Assembly: GCA_043804755.1 (NCBI GenBank)
Contig: JAZDIT010000044.1
Span: 24 to 64,023 of the forward strand
DNA length: 64,000 nt
Source: Patescibacteria group bacterium
GTDB lineage: Bacteria; Patescibacteriota; Minisyncoccia; Minisyncoccales; JAQTPW01
Direction of reading: 5' to 3'
Below, one piece after another: positions 4,725 through 38,890 of this stretch. The notes below the pieces were generated by a model. The model did no database searches. It was not told where the DNA came from and saw only the letters and a list, made by a program, of their open reading frames with translations. Every line of letters starts with the position of its first letter. Position 1 is the stretch's first letter. The position numbers and the translations under genes are program-made.

Positions 4725-4731
4725 TTGAAAA

Positions 4732-4755
4732 CCCGCCGCAAGGCGGGTTTTGGTT
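4732..4755 (+). terminator. Rho-independent terminator-like hairpin after rpsJ (CCCGCCGCAAGGCGGG + TTTTGGTTT)
   Basis: GC stem with GCAA loop followed by a T-run, 8 nt after the rpsJ stop. Confidence 0.55.
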
Positions 4756-4845
4756 TATACTTGAAATAAAATCGCATTCAGGATTTCTTTGATATTGGTT
4801 GACGGATATAGATTTATATTTTATCGTTTAAGAAAGGAGGGACGT

Positions 4846-4875
4846 ATGTCGTATTTTTATCTAGCTTCAGCGTGA
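4846..4875 (+). CDS. 9-codon upstream ORF (MSYFYLASA) with consensus ribosome-binding site; possible leader peptide
   Basis: AAGGAGG at 4834-4840, ATG 5 nt downstream, stop TGA at 4873-4875; lies inside the rpsJ-rplC non-coding insert. Confidence 0.3.
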   Translation: MSYFYLASA

Positions 4876-5024
4876 GGCTGCCCAAAACCGCAAGACTATC
4901 CAGGTATGTAATTTCTGATTGGCAACTAGTCTTGTCGCCGGTATTCAGCAGCCTAACCCAATATGCCCGTTTATCTGTCTGTTGAAACATACCAACAGCT
5001 CTAAACGGGTCCTTTTTATTTTTT

Positions 5025-5048
5025 CCGCCGAAAGGCGGGTTTTGGTTT
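5025..5048 (+). terminator. Second copy of the terminator-like hairpin (CCGCCGAAAGGCGGG + TTTTGGTTTATA)
   Basis: Near-identical 30-nt direct repeat of the 4732-4760 element. Confidence 0.45.
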
Positions 5049-5114
5049 ATAGCTTAAATTTACCCGACAGGATTAAGATGGGTTTTCTAAATATTCTTGA
5101 ACTGGGGAAAACTG

Positions 5115-5143
5115 TTGACATTATGTTTGGCTTAATATATACT
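5115..5143 (+). promoter_or_regulatory. Candidate sigma70 promoter for rplC and downstream genes (TTGACA-17-TATACT)
   Basis: Consensus -35 hexamer, 17-nt spacer, 5/6 match at -10; about 115 nt upstream of rplC. Confidence 0.45.
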
Positions 5144-5217
5144 TTCTTTATGAGTATACTATCTACATCCTTCGTCTGTTGACGAAAGATTAGAACAAGT
5201 ACTAACCGTTTTAATTC

Positions 5218-5244
5218 GCGGGGTTAGTGCCCCGTGTTTTGTTG
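5218..5244 (+). promoter_or_regulatory. Attenuator-like hairpin in the rplC leader (GCGGGG-TTAGTG-CCCCG + TGTTTTGTTG)
   Basis: GC stem plus T-rich tail, ending 14 nt before the rplC ATG. Confidence 0.3.
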
Positions 5245-5258
5245 AAGAAACAAAAAGA

Positions 5259-5849: not shown

Positions 5850-6481
5850 TGGTTAAAATAACAGCTTACAACCAGGAAGGGGAAGAAACGACAGAAGTCC
5901 TTTTGCCGAAGGAGGTTTTTGAAGTTAAAATGAACCCGGATTTGATACACCAGATAATTGTTTCACAGCTGTCTAACCAAAGGCAGGTTATTGCCAGCAC
6001 CAAAACCAGAAGCGAGGTTTCGGGAGGAGGCAGAAAACCATGGAGACAGAAAGGAACGGGTCGCGCGAGGCACGGTTCGACCAGATCTCCTTTGTGGCGC
6101 CATGGCGGGATAACTTTTGGGCCGAGAAACAAGGTTGTTTTCAAAAGAGAAATTCCCGAAAAGATGAGAAAAACGGCTCTTTTTATAGCGTTATCGGATA
6201 AAGTAAAAGACAATCTGCTGATAGTTTTGGATGATTTAAAATTGGAAAAGACAAAGACCAAAATTATGGCAGGCATTTTAAATAAACTTCCCTTAAAGGG
6301 AAAAACAGCATTGATTGTTTTGCCGAAAATGGAAAAGAGTTTGATCTCGGCTTCCCGCAATATCCCCGGAATCGGCACAACTCAGGCCAAAGATCTGAAT
6401 TGTCTGGACGTGCTTTCATATAAATACCTGATTTTATTAAAGGACAGCATAAAAGTAATAAAGGAAATTCTTTGTAAATAA
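5849..6481 (+). CDS. rplD: 50S ribosomal protein L4
   Basis: L4 family; overlaps the rplC stop. Confidence 0.9.
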   Translation: MVKITAYNQEGEETTEVLLPKEVFEVKMNPDLIHQIIVSQLSNQRQVIASTKTRSEVSGGGRKPWRQKGTGRARHGSTRSPLWRHGGITFGPRNKVVFKREIPEKMRKTALFIALSDKVKDNLLIVLDDLKLEKTKTKIMAGILNKLPLKGKTALIVLPKMEKSLISASRNIPGIGTTQAKDLNCLDVLSYKYLILLKDSIKVIKEILCK

Positions 6482-6486
6482 AAGTT

Positions 6487-6879
6487 ATGGCTTTTAATAT
6501 TTTTAAAAAAGAGGAATCCGGTGCGAAAGAAGTTGCGGTTCCGAAAAGCGAGGAGAAAAAAGAAAAAACAGCGAGAACGCCGAAAGGAAAGAGGCCCGGT
6601 TTTGCCTGGAGGATTCTAAAAGCTGCGCATGTCACCGAAAAAGCAACCGATTTATCCAATAAGGACAAGTATATTTTCAACGTTTACAAGAATGCAAATA
6701 AAAACGAAATACGGAAAGAAGTAGAAAACATATACGGCGTAAATGTCGTTTCTGTGAACATAATCAACGTCCATGGAAAGAAAAGAAGATTGGGAAAGAC
6801 CATGGGAATCAAGCCGGGATACAAGAAAGCGATCGTCGGAATACAAAAAGGACAAAAAATAGAACTGATGCCGAGATAA
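6487..6879 (+). CDS. rplW: 50S ribosomal protein L23 (N-terminal basic extension)
   Basis: L23 core in the C-terminal 90 aa; operon position. Confidence 0.88.
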   Translation: MAFNIFKKEESGAKEVAVPKSEEKKEKTARTPKGKRPGFAWRILKAAHVTEKATDLSNKDKYIFNVYKNANKNEIRKEVENIYGVNVVSVNIINVHGKKRRLGKTMGIKPGYKKAIVGIQKGQKIELMPR

Positions 6880-6891
6880 TTTTAAACAAGT

Positions 6892-7683
6892 ATGGTTTAT
6901 TCGAAATTATTTACAAAAAAAGAACCCGAAAAAAGATTGCTTTTGTCTTTGAGAAGAAAGGCGGGACGCTCCACTTCATCGGGAAGAATAACGGTCAGGC
7001 ATCAGGGAGGCGGCGTGAAAAGACTTTACAGGATAATCGATTTCGGTCAGGAAAAAATAAACGTTCCGGGCAAAATTTCGGCCATTGAATACGATCCCAA
7101 CAGAACTTCTTTCATAGGTTTGGTAGAATATAATGACGGCGATAAAAGATATGTTATTTTGGCCAAAAATTTAAATGTGGGAGATTCAGTAATTTGTGCC
7201 GATAATACGGAATTGAAAATCGGCAATCGGACAAAACTGAAAAATATACCAATCGGTACGGAAGTTTATAATATAGAAATCGAGCCCGGAAAAGGCGGAA
7301 AACTCGTGCGGGGAGCGGGAACTGCAGCAAAAGTTATCGCCCAGGAGCCTCCGTTTACGCATTTGGAAATGCCGTCGGGGGAAAGCAGAAAATTTCCTCA
7401 GGAAAGTTTTACTTCATTGGGAGTAGTTTCGCACGAAAAGCACACATTCGAAATTTTGGGTAAAGCAGGTCTTAACAGAAAGAAAGGAATCAGGCCGACA
7501 GTACGCGGAACCGCGATGAATCCCGTTGACCACCCCCACGGAGGGGGAGAAGGAAAGACAACGACCGGGTTGAAGTATTCGAAGACGCCCTGGGGTAAGC
7601 CGGCACGGGGAGTCAAAACCAGAAAGAGATTTTGGACAGACAGATTTATTCTTAAGAGAAGACAAAAAAAGAACAAGAAATAA
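6892..7683 (+). CDS. rplB: 50S ribosomal protein L2
   Basis: L2 motifs (GRNxxGxITxRHxGGG, MNPVDHPHGGGEG). Confidence 0.95.
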   Translation: MVYSKLFTKKEPEKRLLLSLRRKAGRSTSSGRITVRHQGGGVKRLYRIIDFGQEKINVPGKISAIEYDPNRTSFIGLVEYNDGDKRYVILAKNLNVGDSVICADNTELKIGNRTKLKNIPIGTEVYNIEIEPGKGGKLVRGAGTAAKVIAQEPPFTHLEMPSGESRKFPQESFTSLGVVSHEKHTFEILGKAGLNRKKGIRPTVRGTAMNPVDHPHGGGEGKTTTGLKYSKTPWGKPARGVKTRKRFWTDRFILKRRQKKNKK

Positions 7684-7704
7684 GTTTTAATATTCAAAAT
7701 AAAC

Positions 7705-8043
7705 ATGTCTAGATCACTTAAAAAAGGTCCCTTTGTCGATCAAAGACTTCTGGAAAAAATTCAGAAGCTGAAACCGGATTCAAAGGATATCATAAAAACC
7801 TGGAAAAGAGCCTGTTCCATTACGCCGGAAATGGTTGGTTTTACTTTCGGAGTGCATAACGGAAAGGATTTCATAACCGTAAAAGTGAATGAAGATATGG
7901 TAGGCCACAAACTGGGCGAGTTTTCCCCGACGACTAAATTTTCAAGACATGGAGGAAGAATGCAAAGGGAATTGGAATCCAAAGTGGTTGAAAAAGAGGC
8001 CGTAAAGGTTGAAGAAGTAAAGAAAGAACCTAAAGCAAAATAA
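7705..8043 (+). CDS. rpsS: 30S ribosomal protein S19 (C-terminal Lys/Glu-rich extension)
   Basis: S19 core ([11 protein letters not shown]...HNGK...). Confidence 0.92.
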
Positions 8044-8095
8044 GAACCTGCGCAAGCGTAGAACCTTGATTCTTCGCTCCGCTCAGAAAAAAATT
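8041..8095 (+). repeat. Intercistronic palindromic repeat unit (variant), rpsS-rplV junction
   Basis: TAAGAACCTGCGCAAGCGTAGAACCTTGATTCTTCGCTCCGCTCAGAAAAAAATT-ATG; member of the family seen at six loci. Confidence 0.8.
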
Positions 8096-8620
8096 ATGAT
8101 TGCCACCGCAAAGCTTAAATATTTAAGGATAGCTCCCAGAAAAGTCAGGCTCGTAGCGGATTTGATAAGAGGAAAAAGAACTGATAGGGCTCAGGCCGTT
8201 TTGAGCTTTGCGAACAAAAAATCGGCACTAATTATCCTTAAACTTTTAAAACAGGCGATAGCCAACGCAAAAAACAATTTGCATCTGGACGAGTCAAATT
8301 TATACATATCGAAAATAACAGTTGACGGAGGACCTATGCTGAAAAGATTCCGGCCGCGAGCCAGAGGGTCAGCTTATGAAATTCAGAAAAAAACTTCGCA
8401 TATCCTGATCGTCCTCGATGAAATTGAAAAAAGAGGGAAAAAAGAAAAAATCGTCAGAGAACCTGTAAAGGCGGAAGAAGAAGTGGCCGCTGAAAAACCG
8501 CAGGAAAAATCCGGTGAGGAAGTGACGGCGAAAAAATCGAAAATGAAAGTGGAAAAAGAAATCGCAAGGCCGAGAACAGGAAAGGGAACCACTAAAATTT
8601 TCAGAAGGAAATCTTTTTAG
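8096..8620 (+). CDS. rplV: 50S ribosomal protein L22 (C-terminal Lys/Glu-rich extension)
   Basis: Start moved to the ATG at 8096 (MIATAKLKYLRIAPRKVRLVADLIRG); the track's TTG start at 8066 lies inside the repeat. Confidence 0.9.
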   Translation: MIATAKLKYLRIAPRKVRLVADLIRGKRTDRAQAVLSFANKKSALIILKLLKQAIANAKNNLHLDESNLYISKITVDGGPMLKRFRPRARGSAYEIQKKTSHILIVLDEIEKRGKKEKIVREPVKAEEEVAAEKPQEKSGEEVTAKKSKMKVEKEIARPRTGKGTTKIFRRKSF

Positions 8621-10296: not shown

Positions 10297-10668
10297 ATGA
10301 TACAACTGAGAACAAGATTAAAAGTCGCCGATAATACGGGAGCGAAAATCCTGCAGTGTTTTCATATTTTAGGAGGAAGCAAAAGGAAATGGGGCCAACT
10401 GGGCGACATGATAGTCGGCGTCGTAAAAGAAGCGGAGCCCAGGAGATTGGTAAAAAAACATGAGGTAATCAGGGCGGTTATCATAAGGCAAAAGAAATTA
10501 TACAAGAGACGGGACGGTTCATATATCCGTTTTGACGACAATGCCTGTGTCATTTTGGAAGGAAAAACCAAGGAACCGAAAGGGGGACGAATTTTAGGTC
10601 CCGTTGCAAAGGAAGTGAAAGAAAAGGGATTTGACAATGTTGCGGCTTTGGCCGAAGAGTTAATATAA
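10297..10668 (+). CDS. rplN: 50S ribosomal protein L14
   Basis: MIQLRTRLKVADNTGAK... L14. Confidence 0.95.
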   Translation: MIQLRTRLKVADNTGAKILQCFHILGGSKRKWGQLGDMIVGVVKEAEPRRLVKKHEVIRAVIIRQKKLYKRRDGSYIRFDDNACVILEGKTKEPKGGRILGPVAKEVKEKGFDNVAALAEELI

Positions 10669-10776
10669 GAACCTTCGCAAAGCGAAGAACCTTGGATGTC
10701 TGCGGCAAATAAGAACCTTGCCTTCGGCAAGAACCTTGTCTTTTCACTGCGGCTCAGAAATAAAATATTCAAAATT
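10666..10776 (+). repeat. Two tandem intercistronic repeat units, rplN-rplX junction
   Basis: TAAGAACCTTCGCAAAGCGAAGAACCTTGG... then TAAGAACCTTGCCTTCGGCAAGAACCTTGTC...GGCTCAGAAATAAAAT. Confidence 0.85.
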
Positions 10777-11082
10777 ATGAAATTGAAAAAAGGAGATACA
10801 GTTTTAATAATTTCGGGAAAATACCGTGGTAAAAAGGGAAAAGTTTTGGTTTCTTTTCCTGAAGCGGAAAAGGTTTTGGTTGAAGGGATTAATATAAGGA
10901 AAAAGCACCAGAAGGCAAAAAAAGAGGGACAAAAGGGTCAGATAATAGAGATGCCTGCTCCCATTTCGGTTTCGAATGCGATGCTGGTTTGTCCCAAATG
11001 CGGCCAGGCCACGAGAATTGGTTCAAAATTAGTTGAAAAAAAGAGATACAGGAGCTGCAAGAAATGCGGCCAAGAAATATAA
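10777..11082 (+). CDS. rplX: 50S ribosomal protein L24 with a C-terminal Cys4 zinc ribbon
   Basis: Start moved to the ATG at 10777 (MKLKKGDTVLIISGKYRGKKGKV); C-terminus CPKCGQ...CKKCGQ; the track's N-terminal extension is a translated repeat. Confidence 0.9.
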   Translation: MKLKKGDTVLIISGKYRGKKGKVLVSFPEAEKVLVEGINIRKKHQKAKKEGQKGQIIEMPAPISVSNAMLVCPKCGQATRIGSKLVEKKRYRSCKKCGQEI

Positions 11083-11134
11083 GAACCTTGCCTACGGCAA
11101 GAACCTTGTTTCTTCGCTGAGGCTCAGAAATAAA
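11080..11134 (+). repeat. Intercistronic repeat unit, rplX-rplE junction
   Basis: TAAGAACCTTGCCTACGGCAAGAACCTTGTTTCTTCGCTGAGGCTCAGAAATAAA-ATG. Confidence 0.85.
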
Positions 11135-11689
11135 ATGACATATTTGCAAGAAAAATATAAAAAAGAAGTTATTCCTGCAATGAAGGAAAAATTCGGATTC
11201 AAAAGTCCGATGGCGGTTCCCAGAATTGAAAAAATAGTCGTGAATACCGGTTTCGGAAGGGGAGTTGCCGGAAAGTCTTCTGAAGATCAAAAGAAAATAC
11301 AAAAGGGTATTTCGGACGATTTGGATTTGATTTGTGGCCAAAAGTCAATTTTAAAACCGGCCAAAAAATCCATAGCTAGTTTTAAAATTAGAGAAGATAT
11401 GCCCATAGGAGCCGCAGTTACCTTAAGGAGGAAAAAAATGTATGATTTTCTTGAAAGGCTAATTCAAATAACATTGCCGAGAATGCGCGACTTTCGGGGA
11501 GTGGATTCAAAGGCGGTTGATAAAAGAGGAAATTTGACTTTGGGGATAAAAGAACATATTGTTTTTCCGGAAGTATCACCCGAAAGAGCAAAAAACATCT
11601 TTGGATTGGAGATTACCATCGTTATGAATGCGAGAAACAAGGAAGAGGGCGTACAATTATTAAAATTAATGGGTTTTCCTTTAAAGTAA
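11135..11689 (+). CDS. rplE: 50S ribosomal protein L5
   Basis: Start moved to the ATG at 11135 (MTYLQEKYKKEVIPAM...); L5 family. Confidence 0.92.
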   Translation: MTYLQEKYKKEVIPAMKEKFGFKSPMAVPRIEKIVVNTGFGRGVAGKSSEDQKKIQKGISDDLDLICGQKSILKPAKKSIASFKIREDMPIGAAVTLRRKKMYDFLERLIQITLPRMRDFRGVDSKAVDKRGNLTLGIKEHIVFPEVSPERAKNIFGLEITIVMNARNKEEGVQLLKLMGFPLK

Positions 11690-26303: not shown

Positions 26304-27089
26304 ATGATTCCCTTACCAACTCAACCAAAAATCGTCAAAAGAGAAGGAAACAAAGTCCTGTTCGAGATAGAGGCTTTATATCCCGGATACGGGGTCACGG
26401 TCGGAAACTCCTTGAGAAGGGTTTTGTTGTCGTCTCTGCAGGGGGCCGCAGTAACCCAAATGAAAATAAAAGGTGTTTCCCATGAATTCTCGACCATCCC
26501 GGGCATCAAAGAAGACGTCATAACGATAATGCTCAATTTGAAAAAATTGAGGTTCCGCGCCTTTTCCGACGAGCCTCAAATGGGCAGACTGCATATAAAG
26601 GGCGAGAAAGAAGTAAAGGGCTCCGATTTTGAATTACCGAGCCAGGTGGAACTGATAAATGGCGACAGCCATATAGCTTCTTTGACCGCCAAAACTTCCG
26701 ATTTGGAACTGGAAATAACGATAGAAAAGGGAATCGCATATTCTCCGCGCGAAGGCAGAAAAAAAGAAAAAGTAGAGATAGGAACGATTCCCATAGATGC
26801 GATTTTCTCTCCGATTAAAAGAATAAGTTTTAAAGTTGAAAATATGCGCGTCGGTGAAAGAACTGATTTTGACAAGCTTTCTCTGGAGATTGAAACCGAT
26901 GGTACGGTAAAGCCGGAAACGGCATTCGCACAGGCTTCAGAAACCCTGGTCAAACATTTTTCATTGCTTGCAGAGACATTTCAAACAGAAGAATCATTAC
27001 CGTCGGCTAAAACCGCATCGGGAAAAAAGGCAAGAAAGAAAAAGACAGTTTCTTCCGTAAAAAAACATGAGAAAAAGAAAAAAGGGTAG
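26304..27089 (+). CDS. rpoA: DNA-directed RNA polymerase alpha subunit, N-terminal domain only (no alpha-CTD; Lys-rich tail)
   Basis: Alpha NTD motifs (GNSLRRVLLSS...); 261 aa ending in KKARKKKTVSSVKKHEKKKKG. Confidence 0.88.
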   Translation: MIPLPTQPKIVKREGNKVLFEIEALYPGYGVTVGNSLRRVLLSSLQGAAVTQMKIKGVSHEFSTIPGIKEDVITIMLNLKKLRFRAFSDEPQMGRLHIKGEKEVKGSDFELPSQVELINGDSHIASLTAKTSDLELEITIEKGIAYSPREGRKKEKVEIGTIPIDAIFSPIKRISFKVENMRVGERTDFDKLSLEIETDGTVKPETAFAQASETLVKHFSLLAETFQTEESLPSAKTASGKKARKKKTVSSVKKHEKKKKG

Positions 27090-27417
27090 AAAATTAAGCC
27101 TGAAAACCGATCAGAGAAAAGCGCTTTTGAGATCGGTGGCAGAATCTCTTTTCTTAAAAGAAAAGATAAAAACTACTGAAGCCAAAGCCAAGGAGGTTGC
27201 CGGTTTGGTGGAAAAAATGATAACGAAAGCCAAAAAAGGCGACATGGCGGCAGTGCGAAGTCTATCGAGATTTTTTTCGGATAGAATAGTGAAAAAGCTG
27301 ATAAAAGAAATCGCACCGAGATATGTGGCCAGAATGGGAGGCTATACCAGAATAATCAAACTTGGACCGAGGAAAAACGATGCCTCAAAAATGGCGATAG
27401 TGGAATTAGTTAAATAA
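27067..27417 (+). CDS. rplQ: 50S ribosomal protein L17
   Basis: L17 family. Confidence 0.9.
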   Translation: MRKRKKGRKLSLKTDQRKALLRSVAESLFLKEKIKTTEAKAKEVAGLVEKMITKAKKGDMAAVRSLSRFFSDRIVKKLIKEIAPRYVARMGGYTRIIKLGPRKNDASKMAIVELVK

Positions 27418-27555
27418 GAACCTTCGCTTCGCGAAGAACCTTGATTCTTCAGAAATAAGAACCTTCGCTTCGCGAAGAACCTCGATTCTTCGGAAATAAG
27501 AGCATTCGCTTCGCAAAGAACCTTGATTCTTCGCAAGCTCAAAAATGAAAATAAA
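27415..27555 (+). repeat. Tandem array of three intercistronic palindromic repeat units (41-nt period), rplQ-rplM junction
   Basis: TAAGAACCTTCGCTTCGCGAAGAACCTTGATTCTTCAGAAA, then a near-identical second unit, then a third unit extended to GCTCAAAAATGAAAATAAA-ATG. Confidence 0.9.
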
Positions 27556-27903
27556 ATGGAGCGCAAAACTTATACAATAGACGCAACAAACAGAGTATTG
27601 GGAAGATTGGCGGTGCAGATAGCAAATTTATTGAGGGGGAAAAGGAAAACGGATTACGTTCCTTATAAAGATATGGGAGATTTCGTCGTGGTGAAGAATA
27701 TCAAAAGCATCATGGTGACCGGGAAAAAAACCGATCAAAAAAAGTACTACAGCCATTCCGAGTATTTGGGAGGCCTCAAGGAAATATCCTATAAAAAACT
27801 TTTCGAAAAAAATCCGGCGGAAGTCCTGAAAAGAGCCGTTTTCGGGATGCTGCCCATAAATAAGCTCAGAAACGAGCAAATTAAAAGATTGATAATAGAG
27901 TAA
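27556..27903 (+). CDS. rplM: 50S ribosomal protein L13
   Basis: Start moved to the ATG at 27556 (MERKTYTIDATNRVLGRLAVQIANLLRGK). Confidence 0.92.
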   Translation: MERKTYTIDATNRVLGRLAVQIANLLRGKRKTDYVPYKDMGDFVVVKNIKSIMVTGKKTDQKKYYSHSEYLGGLKEISYKKLFEKNPAEVLKRAVFGMLPINKLRNEQIKRLIIE

Positions 27904-32979: not shown

Positions 32980-33993
32980 ATGTCTATATTCGTAAGAAAA
33001 ATCGGAATCGATTTGGGGACCTGCAACTCGGTCGTATTTATACCGGGCAAAGGGCCCGTTTTACAGGAGCCGTCAGTAGTGGCGGTGACTTTGGATGACA
33101 ACAAAATTCTGGCGGTAGGGGAGGCGGCAAAAGAAATGACAGGAAGGACTCCCGACACAATAAAAGTGTATCGTCCTTTGCGGGACGGCGTCATAGCCGA
33201 TTACAGGGTTACCCAGGCAATGCTTAAACATTTCATCGATAAAGTTTCGGGTACCCTGAAATTTTTAAAACCTGAATTGTTGATAGGAGTTCCCGCAGGC
33301 ATTACTTCCACGGAAAGGAGGGCGGTTATCGAAGCCGGAGTCTCGGCAGGAGCCAAAGCGGTTTATATAGCGAAAGAACCAATACTGTCTGCTATCGGAG
33401 CGGGGGTTCCCATTAATTCCTGTTCGGGACACATGATTGTAGATATTGGCGGAGGAACGTCGGAAGTGGCTGTAATTTCTTTGGGAGGAATAGTAACCTG
33501 CCATTCTCTGAGAGTAGCTGGAGACAAACTTGATGCCGCAGTTTCCGATTACATAAAGAAAAAATATAATCTCGCAATCGGGGAGCAGACTGCCGAAGAA
33601 ATCAAAATAAGAGTGGGTACCGCTTTGCCCGAAAAAGAGGAAAAATTCATCGAAATAAGAGGAAGAGATCTGGTTTTGGGTCTTCCCAAAAATATCAGAG
33701 TTTCTTCAAGCGAAGTTTGTGAAGCAATGAGCGACACTCTCGCCGAAATAATCCAGGTCATAAAATTGGTATTGAGGGACACTCCGCCGGAATTGTCGGC
33801 GGACATTATGGATAAAGGCATGGTTTTAGCCGGCGGCGGGGCTTTACTGCGGAATATCGACAAATTGATTTCCCAGAATACCGGAGTTCCGTGCATCCTG
33901 GCTGAAGATCCTCTGTTGTGCGTTGCAAAGGGAACGGGCTTGATGCTTGAAAGCTTGGACGTTTATAAAAAGAGCTTAATGAGCAAAAAATGA
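32980..33993 (+). CDS. mreB: Rod shape-determining protein MreB (paralog 1)
   Basis: GIDLGTCNSVVF ... actin-fold MreB family. Confidence 0.9.
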   Translation: MSIFVRKIGIDLGTCNSVVFIPGKGPVLQEPSVVAVTLDDNKILAVGEAAKEMTGRTPDTIKVYRPLRDGVIADYRVTQAMLKHFIDKVSGTLKFLKPELLIGVPAGITSTERRAVIEAGVSAGAKAVYIAKEPILSAIGAGVPINSCSGHMIVDIGGGTSEVAVISLGGIVTCHSLRVAGDKLDAAVSDYIKKKYNLAIGEQTAEEIKIRVGTALPEKEEKFIEIRGRDLVLGLPKNIRVSSSEVCEAMSDTLAEIIQVIKLVLRDTPPELSADIMDKGMVLAGGGALLRNIDKLISQNTGVPCILAEDPLLCVAKGTGLMLESLDVYKKSLMSKK

Positions 33994-37795: not shown

Positions 37796-38837
37796 AATTT
37801 GGAAAATATTTTCGGAAGACATCGCAATTGATTTGGGAACGGCAAATTCCGAGGTTTATGTAAGGGGGCGGGGAATAATCATCCAGGAACCGAGCGTCGT
37901 TGCCATCAACCAAAAAACCGGGCAGATTCTTGCAATAGGCGAGGAGGCGAAAAAAATGGTTGGCAGAACGCCGGCTCATATCGTGGCTACAAGACCTCTG
38001 AGATCGGGCGTGATTTCCGATTTTGAAGTGACCGAGCAGATGCTCAGATATTTTATTGAAAAAGCCCAACGGAAAAAATTCGCTTTGTCGGCCAGGCCAA
38101 GAGTTATAATAGGTATTCCTTCCGGGGTGACGGAGGTGGAGAAAAAAGCCGTGATAGATGCCGCAAAATCGGCCGGAGCGAGGGAAGTTTTTTTGATTGA
38201 AGAACCAATGGCTGCTGCGATAGGCGCACGGCTTCCGGTACAGGAAGCGGGCGGGAATTTCATAGTCGATATCGGCGGAGGAACCGCGGAAATCGCAATA
38301 ATCTCCCTTGGCGGAATAGTTTTATCCAAAAGTTTGAGGATAGCGGGCGACAAACTGAATGAAGACATAATCCAGTTTGCTCAGGAAGAATATAAGCTCC
38401 TTATCGGGGAAAGAACCGCCGAAGCGATTAAAATCGGAATAGGATCGGCTTATCCGCTGAAGGAAAAAAGGGAGCTTCCCATGCGCGGAAGGAACTTGGT
38501 AACGGGCCTTCCTGAAGAAATACTCGTTTCGGATGAAGATATAAGGAGAGCCATGGAAAAATCCGTAAAGAGAATTGTCACTGAAATCAAAACCGCAGTG
38601 GAAGAGAGTCCGCCGGAATTGCTGGCTGACATCATGGCGTCGGGAATTTATTTTTCGGGCGGGGGATCTTTGTTGCGCGGATTGGATATTCTTGTGGCTA
38701 AAGAAACGAAAATTCCCACGCGCCTTATTGAAGACCCGATGACTGCGGTTGTGAGGGGAGCGGGAATGGTTCTGGAAAATCTTGATGAACTCGAAGACGT
38801 GCTCGTGGAAACTGCGGAACTCGAACCGCCAAAATAA
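37785..38837 (+). CDS. mreB: Rod shape-determining protein MreB (paralog 2)
   Basis: AIDLGTANSEVYV...; full MreB fold. Confidence 0.9.
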   Translation: MLDKIWKIFSEDIAIDLGTANSEVYVRGRGIIIQEPSVVAINQKTGQILAIGEEAKKMVGRTPAHIVATRPLRSGVISDFEVTEQMLRYFIEKAQRKKFALSARPRVIIGIPSGVTEVEKKAVIDAAKSAGAREVFLIEEPMAAAIGARLPVQEAGGNFIVDIGGGTAEIAIISLGGIVLSKSLRIAGDKLNEDIIQFAQEEYKLLIGERTAEAIKIGIGSAYPLKEKRELPMRGRNLVTGLPEEILVSDEDIRRAMEKSVKRIVTEIKTAVEESPPELLADIMASGIYFSGGGSLLRGLDILVAKETKIPTRLIEDPMTAVVRGAGMVLENLDELEDVLVETAELEPPK

Positions 38838-38890
38838 GAACCTTCGCTTCGCGAAGAACCTTGATTCCTCGCTAACGCTCAGAAATAACG
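38835..38890 (+). repeat. Intercistronic repeat unit, mreB-gatC junction
   Basis: TAAGAACCTTCGCTTCGCGAAGAACCTTGATTCCTCGCTAACGCTCAGAAATAACG-ATG. Confidence 0.85.

Follow-up and report, generated by a model that had tools for sequence, protein, structure and literature searches.

Head-to-tail copies of a probably mobile palindromic element form the rplQ-rplM spacer of a Patescibacteria genome

The spacer between the ribosomal protein genes rplQ (L17) and rplM (L13) was analysed in a 64,000-nt stretch of a Patescibacteria metagenome-assembled genome, here called the window. It consists of three head-to-tail units of a short palindromic repeat. These units are probably copies of a non-autonomous mobile element that landed on the rplQ stop codon and was then duplicated locally. 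The element is found at TAA triplets. Where this TAA is a stop codon, the element forms an intercistronic spacer whose 5' end retains the stop, and the next gene keeps an intact A-rich leader and start codon. At an out-of-frame TAA within a gene, the 48-nt (16-codon) element is, judged from sequence, read in an open frame as a tolerated peptide insert. The family is widespread in Patescibacteria, also known as candidate phyla radiation (CPR), and could not be found described in Rfam or in the literature searched.

The array between rplQ and rplM

Pfam identified L17 and L13 on either side of the array, which lies between the gene pairs rpoA-rplQ and rplM-rpsI. The gap from the rplQ stop codon to the rplM ATG measures 138 nt (27418-27555), and three units of 41, 41 and 55 nt fill it. 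The original prediction, made from the window sequence alone, had described a spacer of about 140 nt with three tandem units at 27415-27455, 27456-27496 and 27497-27555, and these were recovered. Tandem Repeats Finder reported a period of 41 nt with 3.0 copies at 27412-27533 (92% matches, score 209). A 37-nt unit pattern with up to 3 mismatches matched three times in the window and never in 100 dinucleotide shuffles. Units 2 and 3 are 95% and 88% identical to unit 1. The differences named in the prediction, CTTG/CTCG and GAACCTT/GAGCATT, are present in the sequence. The last unit closes with TAA (27552-27554), followed by a single A and the rplM ATG at 27556. The predicted TAAG start, with a stop codon in each unit, is real; it follows from the location of the element at TAA triplets and from the TAA at each of its ends.

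Units 1 and 2 have a shortened hairpin 2 (GATTCTTC[A/G]GAAAT), which is found in no other copy of the window. This private feature favours a local duplication of the 41-nt unit and lends support to the predicted multiplication in place. Serial re-insertion into the TAA recreated by each copy is a possible alternative.

The element is real, but the number of three units at this junction could be an assembly artefact, which is improbable. An independent short-read contig of the same organism with the exact L17 protein (L001) ends 24 nt into the array. The hairpin-1 sequence recurs at 38836, so that assembly graphs branch there, and a second assembly spanning the rplQ-rplM site was not found. However, the units differ at diagnostic positions and are thus distinguishable, and the whole array, with its 137 nt, would fit within a typical read. 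The same layout is also present on an independent metagenome contig (L129), with three 41-nt units and a short hairpin 2 directly before an ATG. The closest database L17 proteins share only 76% identity with the rplQ product. No other record was found for the L13 protein, and a window-specific 28-mer had no match in the JGI metagenomes.

Table 1. Array units, flanking features and further element copies in the window
Feature	Position	Strand	Description	Evidence
TAA triplet	27415..27417	+	rplQ (L17) stop codon, 5' TAA of unit 1 and insertion point	open reading frame (ORF) 27067-27417, Pfam Ribosomal_L17
Array unit 1	27415..27455	+	41 nt; TAAGAAC, hairpin 1 at 27422-27436 (CTTCGC-TTC-GCGAAG), AACCTTG, short hairpin 2 at 27444-27456	covariance model 53.7 bits, E 2e-10
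Array unit 2	27456..27496	+	41 nt; CTTG to CTCG and TTCAG to TTCGG relative to unit 1; hairpin 1 at 27463-27477; short hairpin 2 as in unit 1	covariance model 47.4 bits
Array unit 3	27497..27554	+	extended; degenerate 5' flank (GAGCATT), hairpin 1 at 27504-27518 with two mismatches, hairpin 2 at 27526-27546 near full length	covariance model 33.1 bits
rplM (L13)	27556..27903	+	downstream gene	Pfam Ribosomal_L13, E 3.9e-39
Copy at rpsS-rplV	8041..8095	+	single copy that takes up the whole junction between stop and start codon	50.6 bits; Pfam
Copy at rplP-rpmC	9701..9771	+	single diverged copy with enlarged hairpin 2	35.9 bits; Pfam
Copies at rplN-rplX	10666..10763	+	two adjacent copies with differing hairpin-1 stems (CGC-AAA-GCG, GCC-TTC-GGC)	26.7 and 54.4 bits; Pfam
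Copy at rplX-rplE	11080..11134	+	single full copy; top window score against the model from other genomes	61.9 bits, E 2.5e-12; Pfam
Copy after mreB	38835..38890	+	single full copy from the mreB stop codon to the ATG of the next gene (38891); hairpin-1 stem as in units 1 and 2	56.7 bits; Pfam

Structure and distribution of the element family

The canonical element has 48 nt and the layout T-AAGAAC, hairpin 1, AACCTTG, hairpin 2 and TAA. Hairpin 1 has a 6-bp stem of free sequence and a 3-nt loop. The 9-mer AAGAACCTT occurs twice per element, 18 nt apart, and overlaps both arms of hairpin 1. In hairpin 2, a conserved 2x2 internal loop (UC/UC) lies between an A/T-rich stem and a GC stem, and covariation is seen in either stem.

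The note's repeat recurs in the window as it had implied: nine copies lie at six junctions, all on the plus strand (S19-L22, L16-L29, L14-L24 with two, L24-L5, L17-L13 with three, and MreB with the next gene). A covariance model was built from 13 copies, all of other genomes and none of the window. It detected eight of the nine window copies with E <= 4e-4, all on the plus strand; the next-best window match had E = 0.24. The ninth copy, unit 2 of the array, was recovered by the model in a multi-locus search. At all six junctions, the upstream gene uses the TAA of the element as its stop codon, and only a few bases separate the end of the element from the following ATG. Element-free junctions in the same operons have only 1-23 nt. 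All full window copies have an extra A (GCTC-A-GAAA), which is absent from the displayed copies of other genomes; these carry their own variants as genome-specific signatures.

The stems were examined in an alignment of 54 copies, which was fitted to the model and thereby somewhat favours the structure: 95% of the cells were paired, compared to 38-52% with partners slid, 85 cells were changed on both sides versus 22 in shuffles, and compensatory changes occurred in 9 of 12 pairs. Hairpin 1 showed 14 fully complementary inner-stem types among 58 distinct sequences. Single mismatches in this hairpin were nearly all transitions without strand preference (8 G.U versus 10 A.C). Such a lack of G.U bias seems more in keeping with maintenance of a palindrome in the DNA than with selection for an RNA on one strand.

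The distribution was scanned with the pattern AAGAACCTT-N9-AAGAACCTT and one genome per species. Among the matches listed were Nealsonbacteria, Paceibacteria, Minisyncoccales, Wildermuthbacteria, Gribaldobacteria, Shapirobacteria and generic Parcubacteria or Patescibacteria bins, together with bins labelled Saccharibacteria and four bins labelled Gammaproteobacteria or Clostridia (labels as recorded). The listed matches also included coding repeats in unrelated phyla, which are not the element. A stricter pattern located the element in at least 120 metagenome stretches. The same stricter pattern had 0 matches in the viral contigs of IMG/VR, and a viral origin is not supported. In Rfam searches at the gathering threshold, only three tRNAs of the window passed; a permissive search (E <= 10) over element copies gave noise and no relevant family. 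Literature searches revealed no description of the family.

Insertion at TAA triplets

Occupied and empty sites delimit the insert. At the rplQ-rplM junction of L003, the same last rplQ codons are followed by TAA-T-ATG, with nothing inserted. Compared to this site, the window holds a 137-nt insert (27418-27554, 41 + 41 + 55 nt) exactly after the stop codon. Three pairs beyond this junction have 42-48 nt added at TAA. A paralogous pair in L206 reads CCTAAA-TAA-ATCC versus CCTAAA-TAA-(39 nt)-TAA-ATCC. The rplE-rpsN junction provides an occupied/empty pair with L073 and L050. The N-terminus of a Cys-rich enzyme is MKEAYLY-KKPNS in L028 and MKEVYLY-KNLAESKNLDSRFAQN-KKLSG in L158, with exactly 48 nt placed after TAT-AA and before the next A. 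In all four comparisons, the empty site has one TAA and the insert has TAA at both ends. Terminal inverted repeats are absent: the 5' end GAACCTTG and the 3' end CTCGAAA(TAA), as defined by these pairs, are not reverse complements. A 3-bp duplication would account for the TAA pattern, and so would the insertion of a TAA-ending element beside a TAA.

Longer target duplications were considered and rejected. A copy in L038 (6650-6720) has a 9-nt direct repeat, TAGCAATAT, on both sides, unlike the other copies. It may stem from a different insertion event or a local duplication.

The rplQ-rplM junction of L002 carries a different insert, an unrelated AT-rich palindromic repeat of 108 nt. This repeat is present at 7638-7745 (rpmJ-rpsM) and 10344-10451 (rplQ-rplM) with 89% identity, and a partial copy is located at rpsK-rpsD. 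Different repeat families seem to land repeatedly at junctions of ribosomal protein operons.

In-frame copies inside genes

Of the six reading frames of the element, four lack stop codons. Two of these open frames are on the sense strand, and they are precisely the ones entered from an out-of-frame TAA. A TAA in frame is necessarily a stop codon, which accounts for the copies at junctions. In-frame genic copies in either orientation were present in genes for RecR, phosphomannomutase, phosphoglycerate kinase, a class I aminoacyl-tRNA synthetase, TatD, L18, MurC, MurB and a glycosyltransferase. In RecR (Toprim), PGM_PMM_IV, PGK, TatD, L18 and Mur_ligase_C, the Pfam domain matches extend across the inserts and contain 20-30 additional residues. 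The Toprim_4 match covers 109 residues for 79 profile positions, and the PGK match 393 for 373. The same orthologous coding site of TatD is occupied in two genomes (L043 and L006). The ORF of an AMP-binding enzyme in L128 (791 residues) has at least seven units, four of them in tandem.

Next to this seven-unit gene, L128 encodes a reverse transcriptase of the diversity-generating retroelement type (LGNLTSQ and YADD motifs) and an Avd-like four-helix protein (6091-7499). An association of the element with such retroelements was rejected, as the reverse transcriptase occurs at this locus and at no other. PARCEL repeats were also rejected: they are an unrelated protein repeat of 25 residues (PMC2996958). 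In the topA gene of L029 (3900-3990, minus strand), a GC-rich 42-nt unit of another kind (TEADPSRVGFALR) is duplicated in tandem and in frame, and may represent a second family of repeats entering coding sequences. Further odd extra segments are located in the phosphomannomutase of L091 and in the TatD of L043.

Orientation and strand asymmetry

Genomic context was assigned by simple ORF rules for 167 sites away from contig ends; near-duplicates were included, and the counts are approximate. Between two genes on the strand of the element lay 56 sites, and between two opposite-strand genes 4. Genic sites numbered 27, with 19 sense and 8 antisense copies. At 36 sites, the TAA of the element is the stop codon of the upstream ORF.

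The two strands fold differently. The consensus reached -13.8 kcal/mol on the antisense and -8.4 kcal/mol on the sense strand; the array reached -49.8 (z = -3.7) on the opposite strand versus -32.4 kcal/mol (z = -2.0). On the opposite strand, the AAC/AAC internal loop turns into G.U, U.U and U.G and the UC/UC loop into tandem G.A, and TTCTTATTT comes after the hairpin. A simple terminator scan at four of the six window junctions, those other than the sites of the copies 8041-8095 and 38835-38890, flagged the minus strand of most copies there as a hairpin with a T-run. We infer that only the sense orientation persists in operons because the opposite strand would fold into a terminator-like hairpin followed by a T-run, and that selection removes antisense copies there. 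Strand-specific insertion would give the same bias.

The strand asymmetry could also point to a co-opted one-way terminator, which would block antisense or convergent transcription into operons and let sense transcription pass. The flagged minus strands, the more stable antisense fold and the strong orientation bias are in line with such a function. Still, selection against polar insertions explains the bias equally well, and neither genic copies nor tandem arrays are needed for this role. It is considered improbable.

Arrays and variable unit number

A profile search over the fetched loci (2-14-kb pieces per genome, near-duplicate contigs included) gave 192 sites. Single copies accounted for 146, and about a quarter (46) were arrays of 2-7 units. 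A period of 48 nt was by far the commonest; 47, 45, 42, 41 and 36 nt also occurred. L202 has one diverged and six identical units, and L176 has five units. Assemblies with identical flanks differed in unit number: 5 versus 3 (282 versus 186 nt), 4 versus 2 (198 versus 102 nt) and 3 versus 2. In the latter case, the extra unit is distinct in sequence, which makes an artefact less likely. The predicted expanding or contracting array is supported at the family level; for rplQ-rplM itself, the copies come from one assembly. Long arrays are flanked by inverted copies of another short repeat, ATGCGAATT / AATTCGTAT (L176 13200-13260 and 13530-13580; L202 2570-2620).

The prediction had also noted a superficial likeness to a spacer-less CRISPR (clustered regularly interspaced short palindromic repeats), and the likeness is only superficial. 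A degenerate or novel guide-RNA array, CRISPR- or TIGR-like (tandem interspaced guide RNA), is extremely improbable. Short tandem units with palindromes are shared with such arrays. TIGR arrays are common in CPR; they have two alternating 8-12-nt repeats, variable 9-nt spacers A and B, units of 36 nt and an adjacent tas gene with a Nop domain (PMC12045711). Here, too, 9-mers flank a 9-nt segment. However, this segment is a palindrome that is identical between array units, and the period differs from 36 nt, with 41 nt for this array and 48 nt for the family. The units abut and are 88-95% identical over their whole length, which leaves no variable spacers. The array neighbours rpoA-rplQ and rplM-rpsI, the part of the window checked for cas, include no cas and no tas gene. 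A Nop family was absent among the 25 most frequent of 122 Pfam families in 108 ORFs flanking copies elsewhere (2-14-kb genome pieces). The predominance of single copies and the many in-frame genic copies also speak against a guide-RNA array.

A mobile element or an RNA element

The proposed history starts with one copy that would have been inserted at the rplQ stop codon, where relatives have TAA-N-ATG. Local multiplication may have followed, either through slippage or unequal exchange or through renewed insertion at the TAA that each copy recreates. A putative trans-acting enzyme would recognise the folded hairpin and the invariant single-stranded flanks in the manner of HUH/Y1 enzymes, by analogy to REP/RAYT (repetitive extragenic palindromes and their associated tyrosine transposases) and IS200/IS605. 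The lack of inverted ends, the two hairpins, the invariant flanks, the fixed short site, the head-to-tail arrays and the orientation bias fit such a recognition. Alternatively, an enzyme of another type may have duplicated the 3-bp TAA. At rplQ-rplM, the element is probably a near-neutral passenger of the rplQ-rplM transcript.

Several points weigh against a mobile element. Neither a transposase nor a recurrent partner gene was present beside the copies among the 25 most frequent Pfam families described above, which are ordinary housekeeping families, and the IMG/VR contigs lack the element. The invariant nucleotides across very deep lineages and the orthologous TatD site (L043, L006) are uncommon among selfish repeats and may indicate a host function. 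The differences in copy number were seen in short-read assemblies, where identical repeats may be collapsed or expanded. The site and context counts rest on crude ORF calls and on loci with near-duplicate contigs.

The host function could be that of a cis-acting RNA element of polycistronic mRNAs, placed where the cell uses it, for instance as a site of RNase processing or of stabilisation, as a spacer for translational coupling or as a decoy for a protein associated with the ribosome. The covarying stems with invariant unpaired nucleotides, the exact span from stop codon to start region at all six window junctions and the sense bias in operons (56 versus 4) are consistent with this. So is the invariant 9-mer AAGAACCUU (CGCGAAGAACCUU in the window copies), which is identical to a universal 16S rRNA segment, although a chance match of this kind has a probability of a few percent. 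The in-frame copies in unrelated conserved genes in both orientations argue against an RNA element, as do its absence or replacement at orthologous junctions of relatives and the variable unit number. Outside the window, no enrichment beside ribosomal protein genes was observed. The hairpin mismatches have no G.U excess on the transcribed strand, and no Rfam family matched. An RNA element is thus unlikely as the primary explanation; a regulatory RNA role may be a secondary, co-opted function.

The rRNA identity is also an observation in its own right. The 9-mer AAGAACCTT (27434-27442 and all copies) and the window 13-mer CGCGAAGAACCTT after the hairpin are identical, not complementary, to the conserved 16S rRNA segment AACGCGAAGAACCTTACC. 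The presence of this segment in E. coli 16S rRNA was confirmed. It may be chance or a hint of rRNA-site mimicry.

The mobile element may be viewed, more tentatively, as a frame-neutral homing repeat. A TAA-targeting element of 48 nt (16 codons) would be harmless in all three phases, either as a stop codon or as an open peptide. A putative conserved enzyme recognising the single-stranded hairpin could copy or homogenise it and so keep it near-invariant across Patescibacteria, also within essential genes, or the cell's own use could do so. Arrays would then reflect an enzyme that re-uses the recreated TAA.

Comparison with known repeats

Rickettsia palindromic elements (RPE) are the closest known system in behaviour, and the resemblance is behavioural only. 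RPE are small palindromic repeats with frequent in-frame insertions in housekeeping genes (PMC10969869). Both families lack a transposase gene, are dispersed in the reduced genome of a host-dependent bacterium and occur between genes and often in frame in unrelated housekeeping genes, where they add a peptide. They differ in size and host: RPE have about 100-150 bp and are restricted to Rickettsia, whereas the element has 41-60 nt and occurs in many CPR lineages. The TAA site, the perfect tandem arrays and the invariant flanks are further differences.

REP and bacterial interspersed mosaic elements (BIME) share the hairpin with a variable stem and a short conserved single-stranded flank, many copies and arrays. 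A folded single strand bound by an HUH-type enzyme would be another likeness. REP hairpins have a conserved 5' tetranucleotide. In contrast to the element, REP are strictly extragenic, genus- or species-specific, have alternating orientations in BIME and, as inverted copies, flank a RAYT gene. Here, 27 of 167 sites are inside ORFs, the arrays are head to tail, and no RAYT-like or Y1 transposase was found among the 25 most frequent Pfam families of the flanking ORFs (2-14-kb genome pieces).

Derivatives of IS200/IS605 (PATE-like) have no terminal inverted repeats, two subterminal hairpins, insertion beside a fixed short sequence and a strand or orientation bias. The element likewise lacks inverted ends and has hairpins, a fixed short flanking TAA and an orientation bias. 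Unlike these derivatives, it is far shorter than the known ends, and the distance from the presumed cleavage site to the hairpin does not match the IS608 geometry. A TnpA partner was likewise not found among these Pfam families. A 3-bp TAA duplication may be a further difference, as this type of transposition leaves none. The missing terminal inverted repeats also distinguish it from classical miniature inverted-repeat transposable elements derived from DDE transposons.

Pneumococcal BOX elements consist of three distinct modules, with a boxB module that is tandemly repeated in variable number within the dispersed element. SPRITE are terminator-like, and both BOX and SPRITE are intergenic and stably folding. 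Neither is known to have a TAA site or systematic in-frame genic copies. The variable tandem module (BOX) and the terminator-like strand (SPRITE) are likenesses; sequence, size and host differ. Both families are mentioned together with RPE (PMC10969869). The size, the TAA site, the length divisible by three and the near-invariant flanks across phylum-level CPR lineages set the element apart from RPE, REP, BOX and SPRITE.

Significance and further observations

The genomes of CPR bacteria are very small, and their operons are densely arranged. A repeat that forms most of the longer intercistronic spacers of a ribosomal protein cluster is unexpected, and equally so are inserts of 16 residues by the same repeat in RecR, PGK, aminoacyl-tRNA synthetases, L18 and Mur ligases. 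The element accounts for breaks in assemblies, for odd insertions in marker proteins of CPR and for gene calls that extend too far. The variable unit number offers a simple population marker. The TAA site, the fixed length divisible by three and the invariant flanks across phylum-level lineages point to a putative dedicated and conserved mobilising activity. Phyletic profiling with the covariance model could make the search for this activity directly testable.

The ORF calls at 8066-8620, 10696-11082, 11033-11689 and 27523-27903 run upstream through the element (e.g., MSAANKNLAFGKNLV...). Automatic annotation is likely to assign over-long N-termini to genes after a copy.

Two other readings of the repeat were rejected. 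A promoter (TTGATT ... TAAAAT) would have irregular spacing and a candidate -10 box abutting the ATG, and a consensus scan gave one weak site. For a DNA-uptake sequence, the 9-mer AAGAACCTT would be the candidate; on the plus strand of the window, it never occurs outside the composite element.

The window encodes two MreB-like genes, apparently paralogues, with 70% identity over 100 nt (33436-33535 versus 38262-38361); the second precedes an element copy. The gap between rpsJ and rplC (4725-5258, 534 nt) contains two 35-nt units, CCGCCG(C/A)AAGGCGGGTTTTGGTTTATA, at 4733 and 5025 with 89% identity. Each resembles a terminator hairpin with a T-run.

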